Source: a phage
Sequence record: PZ195123.1
DNA length: 3,207 nucleotides
Strand: one strand, 5' to 3'
Below, piece by piece: positions 1,298 to 3,207 of this stretch (the stretch's first letter is position 1; the number at the start of each line of letters is the position of its first letter). A program made the position numbers and the translations under genes. The notes under the pieces are model-generated. The model searched no databases, was not told where the DNA came from, and worked only from the letters and a program-made list of their open reading frames with translations.

Positions 1298-1690
1298 ATG
1301 GCAACTTTACGCAGTTTCGTACTCGTCGATAATGGCGGTACGGGGAATGTTACTGTCGTTCCTGTTAGCAATGCCAACGGCGTCGCTGAGTGGCTTTCTA
1401 ATAACTCGCGCAGTCAAGCTTATCGCGTGACTGCCAGTTATCGTGCGTCAGGCGCGGACAAGCGCAAATACACCATCAAACTTGAGGTACCGAAAATCGT
1501 TACTCAAGTTGTTAATGGCGTTGAGCTGCCTGTTTCCGCATGGAAGGCTTACGCCTCTATTGACCTGACCATCCCTATCTTTGCTGCAACCGATGACGTG
1601 ACTGTTATTTCCAAGTCACTCGCCGGCCTGTTCAAAGTTGGGAACCCTATCGCTGAAGCTATCTCTTCGCAGAGCGGCTTCTACGCGTAA
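1298..1690 (+). CDS. cp: Major coat (capsid) protein, 130 codons; also the translational repressor of the replicase gene
   Basis: ORF track 1298..1690. The translation MATLRSFVLVDNGGTGNVTVVPVSNANGVAEWLSNNSRSQAYRVTASYRAS... matches from memory the levivirus coat fold signature (FVLVDNGGTG, NGVAEWLS.NSRSQAY, ELTIPIF-like TIPIFAA) and is closest to phage GA coat protein. Stop TAA at 1688-1690. Confidence 0.97.
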   Translation: MATLRSFVLVDNGGTGNVTVVPVSNANGVAEWLSNNSRSQAYRVTASYRASGADKRKYTIKLEVPKIVTQVVNGVELPVSAWKAYASIDLTIPIFAATDDVTVISKSLAGLFKVGNPIAEAISSQSGFYA

Positions 1691-1881
1691 TGGGTCTGAA
1701 AGCAAAACATAAGGAAAACCTATGTTCCGATTCACAGAGATCGAAAAGACTCTATGTATGGATCGCACTCGCGATTGTGCTATCCGATTTCACGTCTATC
1801 TTCAGTCACTGGATTTGGGGTCTTCTGATCCTCATTCTCCGGACTTTGATGGACTTGCCTACCTTCGTGATGAATGTCTAA
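1690..1881 (+). CDS. lys: Lysis protein (single-gene lysis protein, L-type), 63 codons, overlapping the coat stop and the 5' part of the replicase gene in a different frame
   Basis: ORF track 1690..1881. Its ATG (1690-1692) overlaps the coat stop as TAATG. The product has a basic hydrophilic N-terminus (MGLKAKHKENLCSDSQRSKR) followed by a long hydrophobic stretch (LYVWIALAIVLSDFTSIFSHWIWGLLILILRTL), the typical architecture of levivirus L proteins. Position between coat and replicase is as in MS2/GA-type phages. There is no obvious SD, which fits termination-reinitiation coupling. Confidence 0.85.
   Translation: MGLKAKHKENLCSDSQRSKRLYVWIALAIVLSDFTSIFSHWIWGLLILILRTLMDLPTFVMNV
1707..1725 (+). 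promoter_or_regulatory. Coat-protein translational operator hairpin enclosing the replicase start codon (ACAUA-A-GG-AAAA-CC-UAUGU)
   Basis: Seen in sequence: 1707-1711 ACATA pairs with 1721-1725 TATGT, A1712 is unpaired, GG 1713-1714 pairs with CC 1719-1720, and the loop is AAAA 1715-1718. This is the same architecture as the MS2 operator ACAUG-A-GG-AUUA-CC-CAUGU, with loop adenines at -4 and -7 relative to the replicase AUG at 1722. An AAGGA SD (1711-1715) is embedded in the hairpin. Confidence 0.85.
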
Positions 1882-3172
1882 CTAAACATCCTTCACTTGG
1901 AGACAGTAATTCGGACGCACGCCGTAAGGAATTGGCATATGCCAAACTTATGGATAGTGATCAAAGATGCAAAATCCAAAACAGTAACGGATACGACTAC
2001 TCTCATATCGAGAGTAGCGTACTGAGTGGTATACTCAAGACTGCTCAGGCCCTTGTGGCAAACTTACTTACGGGTTTTGAATCTCACTTCCTGAACGATT
2101 GTTCATTCTCCAATGGAGCCTCACAAGGGTTCAAGTTGCGGGATGCAGCGCCGTTTAAGAAGATCGCTGGGCAAGCAACCGTTACAGCTCCTGCTTATGA
2201 CATCGCCGTGGCCGCCGTTAAAACGTGCGCTCCGTGGTATGCTTATATGCAGGAAACGTATGGCGATGAAACCAAATGGTTTCGTCGGGTATACGGCAAC
2301 GGTTTGTTTTCTGTTCCGAAGAACAATAAAATAGATCGGGCTGCCTGTAAGGAGCCTGATATGAATATGTACCTTCAGAAGGGGGCGGGATCTTTTATAA
2401 GAAAACGCCTCCGCTCCGTCGGTATAGATCTTAACGATCAGACGCGCAATCAGGAATTAGCCCGACTCGGCAGCATTGACGGTTCACTTGCTACTATTGA
2501 TCTTAGTAGCGCTAGTGATTCCATCTCTGACCGCCTTGTCTGGGACCTTCTTCCGCCGCACGTTTATTCATACCTCGCTCGTATTCGTTCGTCTTTCACT
2601 ATGATCGACGGGCGTTTACACAAGTGGGGTCTATTTTCTACCATGGGGAATGGCTTCACATTCGAACTCGAGTCCATGATCTTTTGGGCTCTAAGTAAGA
2701 GTGTTATGCTATCCATGGGTGTTACTGGCTCATTAGGCATCTATGGTGACGATATAATCGTCCCCATTGAATGTGCCCCAACTCTCCTTAAGGTACTATC
2801 CGCTGTGAACTTTCTTCCTAATGAAAAGAAGACGTTCACTACGGGTTACTTTCGCGAAAGTTGTGGTGCTCATTTCTTTAAAGGTGCCGACATGAAACCT
2901 TTTTACTGCAAGCGGCCAATGGAAACCCTTCCCGATGTCATGTTGCTATGCAACAGGATAAGAGGTTGGCAGACCGTTGGTGGAATGTCAGATCCGCGGC
3001 TTTTCCCGATTTGGAAAGAGTTCGCTGATATGATTCCGCAGAAGTTTAAGGGTGGATGCAATCTGGATCGCGATACTTACCTCGTTTCACCGGATAAACC
3101 TGGTGTCACATTGGTTCGTATCGCTCAGGTTCGCTCTGGTTTTAACCACGCGTTCTCGTACGGCCATGAAAA
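1722..3172 (+). CDS. rep: RNA-dependent RNA polymerase (replicase beta subunit), 3'-partial; about 483 codons readable before the N run
   Basis: Manual translation from ATG 1722 in frame 0 runs without a stop to 3172: MFRFTEIEKTLCMDRTRD...GSSDPHSPDFDGLAYLRDECLTKHP...VPKNNKIDRAACKEPDMNMYLQKGAGSFIRKRLRSVGIDLNDQ...LATIDLSSASDSISDRLVW...FSTMGNGFTFELESMIFWA...GIYGDDIIVP...FRESCGAHF...GGMSDPRLF.... It contains the polymerase YGDD motif (2742-2753) and long blocks I recall as near-identical to MS2 replicase. It is missing from the ORF track only because it has no stop in the window. Confidence 0.95.
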
Positions 3173-3207
3173 NNNNNNNNNNNNNNNCTNNNNNNNNNNN
3201 NNNNNNG
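3173..3207. other. Run of ambiguous bases (N) with isolated calls (CT at 3188-3189, G at 3207); masked or unresolved 3' portion
   Basis: Directly visible. It interrupts the replicase ORF, and the 3' end of the replicase plus the 3' UTR are absent from the window. Confidence 0.99.

Follow-up and report, generated by a model that had tools for sequence, protein, structure and literature searches.

The 63-codon open reading frame (ORF) at positions 1690-1881 of the window, the 3,207-nucleotide stretch of phage DNA (PZ195123.1) analyzed here, very probably (about 95%) encodes a GA-type single-gene lysis protein, L, that is translated without a Shine-Dalgarno (SD) sequence by ribosomes that reinitiate after terminating at the coat UAA. 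The anatomy of the gene, its homology, its lack of an SD and the constraint imposed by dual coding are all observed directly, and nothing was found that contradicts a GA-type lysis gene.

In Megablast searches of the phage collection, the window matched phage GA (X03869/NC_001426) over its entire length at 94.5% identity; BZ13 strains DL10 and DL20 matched at 94.6-95.0%, and KU1 and BZ13 T72 at ~85%. All of these are Emesvirus japonicum, group II F-specific leviviruses. The records X03869, FJ483837 and FJ483839 cover 98-100% of the window at 94.5-95.0% identity and, by this measure of sequence similarity, the window comes from a strain of Emesvirus japonicum and covers most of the genome of this GA-type group II levivirus. 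The three large ORFs of the window match Phage_mat-A, Levi_coat and RNA_replicase_B in Pfam, and maturation, coat, lysis and replicase genes are annotated at equivalent coordinates in the relatives' records. The maturation ATG lies at 109, and the coat protein is identical to that of BZ13 DL10. At the other end of the window, an N run with isolated c, t and g at 3173-3206, which looks like an assembly gap or a masked stretch, truncates the replicase ORF, leaving it ~150 nt short of its expected end. The genes and the junction on which the analysis centers are as follows:

1298-1690, plus strand: coat gene, 130 aa (Pfam Levi_coat, E = 1.5e-38; coat annotated there in GA, BZ13 and KU1).
1688-1692, plus strand: UAAUG junction, in which the coat stop and the lysis AUG share an A (read from the sequence; identical in GA, DL10 and DL20).
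1690-1881, plus strand: lysis (L) gene, 63 aa (identity to DL20, PF11125, homology to MS2 L, intact in relatives).
1722-3172, plus strand: replicase beta-subunit gene, 5' part (Pfam RNA_replicase_B, E = 7e-216; annotated in relatives).

A first-pass annotation of the same DNA had placed the coat stop TAA at 1688-1690 and the lysis ATG at 1690-1692, and reading of the sequence confirms that the two share one A in a TAATG. From this ATG the L ORF runs for 63 codons to a TAA stop at 1879-1881, and the overlap with replicase described in that annotation is indeed 160 nt long (1722-1881) and read in two frames, with the replicase ATG (1722-1724) in the third frame. Upstream in the L frame, the nearest stop is a TGA at 1654, no ATG, GTG or TTG occurs in that frame between this stop and 1690, and the next methionine after the start is residue 54. 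Because there is no start codon between the stop at 1654 and 1690, position 1690 is the only plausible start of L. The lysis CDS likewise begins on the final base of the coat CDS in the records of GA, DL10 and DL20, and the window conforms to the general pattern of an ORF of 63-64 codons that starts at or just after the coat stop, ends inside replicase and encodes the annotated L protein.

The L product is the same, at 100% identity, as the lysis protein annotated in BZ13 DL20 (ACT66727), and the alignments with the GA and MS2 L proteins that had been proposed as a check gave ~95% and 43% identity, respectively. Three residues distinguish it from GA L (X03869; Inokuchi et al. 1986), namely Q16E, I49Y and R51Q. 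The position of the lysis gene, the UAAUG junction, the 63-codon length and the replicase overlap in GA, DL10 and DL20 are all as in the window, with differences limited to strain-level substitutions. Two nucleotides in the overlap are private to the window strain: an A at 1782, which replaces V21 of replicase with I but leaves L unchanged (L31), and a C at 1809, which is silent in both frames. The BLASTP match to MS2 L extends over 51 residues (E = 1e-10) and aligns LAIVLSDFT of the window protein with LAIFLSKFT of MS2 L, leaving the Leu-Ser dipeptide in register. Furthermore, the product scores 30.6 bits (E = 3.3e-7) against the Pfam family PF11125 (Phage_MS2_lysis), for which the curated gathering cut-off is 25 bits. 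The matches to DL20 L, GA L, MS2 L and PF11125 together bear out the designation of 1690-1881 as a lysis gene.

The domain organization of the protein is also that of an L protein. Residues 1-20 contain six K/R and two D/E residues, in agreement with the basic N-terminal region noted in the first reading of the sequence. The hydrophobic segment of about 30 residues proposed in the same reading stands as to its extent and composition, since residues 21-52 (nt 1750-1845) are hydrophobic by Kyte-Doolittle hydropathy, but it is not one uniform helix. Two hydrophobic cores, at residues 21-31 and 41-50, lie around the polar SDFTSIFSH of the LS-motif region, and the best 19-residue mean is 1.77. The LS motif occupies residues 31-32 and is aligned with the LS of MS2 L. 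L-like proteins are described as having a basic N-terminus, a hydrophobic domain, a Leu-Ser dipeptide and a variable C-terminus (PMC10229422), and the window protein follows this order, being basic over residues 1-20 and hydrophobic from residue 21, with LS at 31-32. It would thus be an L-like (type II) protein, in which the basic N-terminal region, hydrophobic domain and Leu-Ser motif are followed by a short C-terminal domain, and would cause host autolysis without a block of net peptidoglycan synthesis. The near-identical KU1 Sgl, a type II protein, lyses Escherichia coli when expressed alone, while mDAP incorporation continues (PMC10614894).

An ORF that lies largely within another gene could also be a chance frame, conserved by replicase coding and RNA-structure constraints alone. 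That ORFs of this size can arise by chance is evident from the window itself, where other alternative frames of the plus strand hold ORFs of like length at 62-382 (106 aa) and 2113-2334 (73 aa); with two such ORFs as long as L present, ORF length was rejected as evidence for L. Both controls are broken in relatives. ORF 62-382 carries a frameshift and stops in GA, DL10, KU1 and T72; ORF 2113-2334 has lost its start in GA and DL20 and is interrupted by a stop in KU1 and T72. Judged by this pattern, both are chance ORFs. The L ORF, in contrast, is intact in 5/5 database genomes and in six metagenomic or IMG-VR group II loci (L007-L010, L014 and L015). ORF 62-382 is open only in the window and in BZ13 DL20 because of one extra nucleotide near ~97, in the 5' UTR upstream of the maturation ATG, where these two read TATATTCC and GA, DL10, KU1 and T72 read TATA-TCC.

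The pattern of substitution in replicase bears on the same question, and defines one further feature:

1722-1881, plus strand: dual-coding stretch, read in the L and replicase frames (suppressed replicase third-position variation).

Among six aligned genomes, replicase third-codon positions are variable at 4 of 53 sites in the overlap versus 201 of 430 in 1882-3170 (Fisher p = 5e-9), and the overlap is 98.1% identical to KU1, the remaining replicase 82.9%. The low third-position variation in the overlap is characteristic of selection acting on a second reading frame. Parts of replicase beyond the overlap are invariant as well, with 0 variable sites in the 30-nt bins 1950-1979 and 2010-2039, which is what a chance frame under other constraints would lead one to expect, and given these bins RNA structure may add to the constraint. 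A chance frame, however, is at odds with synonymous replicase sites being suppressed specifically in the overlap, with an 18-nt insertion in KU1 that keeps the frame and supplies a new start, with the significant homology to MS2 L and the Pfam family, and with the lytic activity of the KU1 homologue when expressed alone (PMC10614894). The homology and the lytic homologue refute the chance-ORF reading, to which we assign almost no weight, and 1690-1881 is treated below as the L gene.

How ribosomes reach the L start is a separate matter, and one for which the sequence immediately upstream is informative:

1668-1689, plus strand: 22 nt upstream of the L AUG, without a Shine-Dalgarno (best anti-SD duplex -2.5 kcal/mol).

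The first-pass annotation had reported that no SD precedes the lysis ATG, and the duplex with the 16S 3' end supports this, its energy being equalled or bettered by 52% of window positions. The corresponding values at the maturation, coat and replicase starts are -9.5, -6.1 and -6.2 kcal/mol. The suggestion that L is made by ribosomes that terminate at the coat TAA and reinitiate corresponds to what is experimentally established for the same UAAUG junction in GA (PMC9955659). That study (Inokuchi et al., PLoS One 2023) summarizes and extends the authors' own EMBO J 2000 work, in which, as summarized there, the SD-less GA lysis gene was read strictly by coat-translating ribosomes, and deletion and substitution analyses of GA gave no sequence that allowed lysis-gene expression without coat translation (PMC9955659). 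In reporter fusions of the UAAUG junction, removal of the upstream (coat-frame) start abolished downstream expression, as did an AUG to AUA change within UAAUG when ribosome recycling factor was active; ~25% of upstream ribosomes reinitiate, a figure that comes from a plasmid lacZ reporter and not from phage RNA (PMC9955659). Only three sites, all of them synonymous coat positions, separate the window from GA across 1600-1734, and because the two are nearly identical here, carrying the GA coupling result over to the window is a small step. We infer, from GA or KU1, that L of the window strain is dependent on coat translation and lytic.

The arrangement suggests the following course of events. 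Without a ribosome-binding site of its own, the L start would be reached only by ribosomes terminating at the coat UAA (1688-1690), some of which, after release, would bind again at the overlapping AUG, one base downstream, and go on to translate L. The output of L would then be a fixed, low fraction of coat output and, being tied to coat, would delay lysis until coat protein has accumulated; this link between coupling and the timing of lysis is probable. Ribosomes on the L ORF would pass through the replicase operator hairpin and then through the 160 nt held in common with the replicase gene, in the other frame.

Two predicted RNA structures flank the junction:

1654-1680, plus strand: predicted hairpin at the coat 3' end (MFE fold; the GA-annotated equivalent is window 1656-1680).
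1706-1726, plus strand: predicted replicase operator hairpin (coat-protein binding), inside the L gene and holding the replicase AUG (1722-1724).

In the GA record the equivalent of 1656-1680 is called a 'pot. stem loop; pot. function in lysis gene control', and the equivalent of the operator hairpin, GA 1733-1753, is annotated as 'pot. binding site coat protein'. A consensus fold was made from eight GA- and KU1-type junction sequences. The operator hairpin is invariant in 8/8 of these, and the hairpin at 1654-1680 has an invariant inner CUCU/AGAG stem and an outer stem that is partly broken in KU1-type sequences. With 0 matches in a gathering scan of the window against Rfam, neither the junction nor the operator is represented by a curated RNA family.

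The fold also predicts that ACCC (1644-1647) pairs with GGGU (1692-1695), so that the G of the L AUG and codon 2 are covered; this pairing is present in 8/8 sequences. Such a pairing over the start, together with the stem-loop that the GA record associates with lysis gene control, is the kind of evidence on which a different account of the coat requirement could be built, in which free ribosomes initiate de novo at the AUG at 1690 and coat translation only unfolds a repressive RNA structure. For MS2, with its spacing of -50 nt, an RNA-unfolding model of this kind has been discussed (PMC12548453). With a -1 overlap, however, the terminating ribosome is physically on the start site, and there is no SD with which free 30S subunits could be recruited; free ribosomes are excluded from an SD-less start, and the GA deletions and substitutions, as summarized in the same study, gave no coat-independent expression (PMC9955659). 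Nor does the local structure stand out, the MFE fold at the junction having an unexceptional z of -1.9 and no pair in the eight GA- and KU1-type sequences showing a compensatory change, the ACCC/GGGU pairing itself being invariant. De novo initiation is thus highly improbable, and reinitiation after coat termination remains the preferred explanation for translation of L.

The junction varies among relatives in ways that leave L close to the coat stop. The L proteins of KU1 and T72 match that of the window almost completely from residue 4, and the replicase overlap and operator hairpin are as in the window. Unlike the uninterrupted UAAUG of the window, however, KU1-type genomes carry an 18-nt insertion between UAA and UG, and an extra 3-nt insertion makes KU1-type L one residue longer than the window L. 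The 18-nt insertion is found in KU1, T72 and five metagenomic or IMG-VR contigs (L008-L010, L014 and L015); its sequence is GGCGUAGUUCUUCAGCAU in L003 (1715-1737), L005, L008-L010 and L014, and it aligns between window positions 1690 and 1691. L begins in KU1, T72, L008-L010 and L014 with a UUG created by the insertion, 17 nt past the coat stop codon. The coat 3' end and the first 7 nt of the insertion are reverse complements, so that they form a perfect 7-bp hairpin whose loop holds the coat stop (CUACGCC-UAA-GGCGUAG). The metagenomic KU1-type contig L015 (375-397) has the same 18-nt insertion with ...CAGUAAUG in place of ...CAGCAUUG, a variant in which an AUG start, and with it a second UAAUG pentamer, is regained 17 nt past the coat stop codon.

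Other junctions occur in more distant levivirus (Emesvirus-like) contigs, with 57-74% coat identity (L013 and L016-L019). For instance, L018 (1198-1202) has a UGAUG junction and a 72-aa MS2-L-like ORF, and L017 (1772-1777) has a UAA abutting a GUG that begins a 60-aa L-like ORF. In L016 (1886-1893) the AUG lies 5 nt before the coat stop and the L-like ORF runs off the contig end, and in L013 (1649-1666) and L019 (1647-1664) an AUG at +15 with its own AGGAG begins a 70-aa L-like ORF. In every examined contig that spans the coat stop, the L start is no more than 20 nt from it, and it is the exact junction that varies. The ACCC (1644-1647)/GGGU (1692-1695) pairing is kept in GA- and KU1-type genomes despite the 18-nt insertion. 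It is conceivable, if rather doubtful as a joint proposal, that this pairing acts as a second lock on the L start and that the junction variants represent a reinitiation efficiency retuned repeatedly in evolution, and with it lysis timing; the identity of the feature would be unchanged if either were true.

The lysis gene arrangement described here is real but already known, as an identical protein is in GenBank and the mechanism has been described and tested in GA. Obligatory translational coupling at the GA UAAUG junction is a textbook case, and the junction has served in work on ribosome recycling factor for >20 years. The window thus adds one more strain with the canonical lysis-gene arrangement, and little is gained beyond that; the gene, its missing SD and the coupling mechanism had all been correctly deduced in the first-pass annotation from the letters of the sequence.

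The closest comparison outside group II is with the L genes of the group I phages MS2 and fr, which encode a homologous protein (PF11125) in an alternative frame between coat and replicase, as in the window, and whose translation is established to be coupled to coat termination (PMC12548453). The two groups differ in the position of the start. The MS2 L start is ~50 nt upstream of the coat stop (1678 versus 1725-1727) and that of fr is 38 nt upstream, whereas the stop and start of the window overlap by one base. With the start upstream of the stop, MS2 and fr need backward ribosome scanning or the unfolding of a regulatory hairpin (PMC12548453). MS2 L is, in addition, 12 residues longer at its N-terminus than the window L. 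Most cellular stop-start overlaps keep some SD for the downstream gene. The window L differs from these in having no SD at all, which would make its coupling obligatory. In the -1 overlap itself, and in a downstream start served by terminating ribosomes, the window junction is nevertheless like the AUGA and UAAUG overlaps of bacteria (PMC9955659, PMC12548453).
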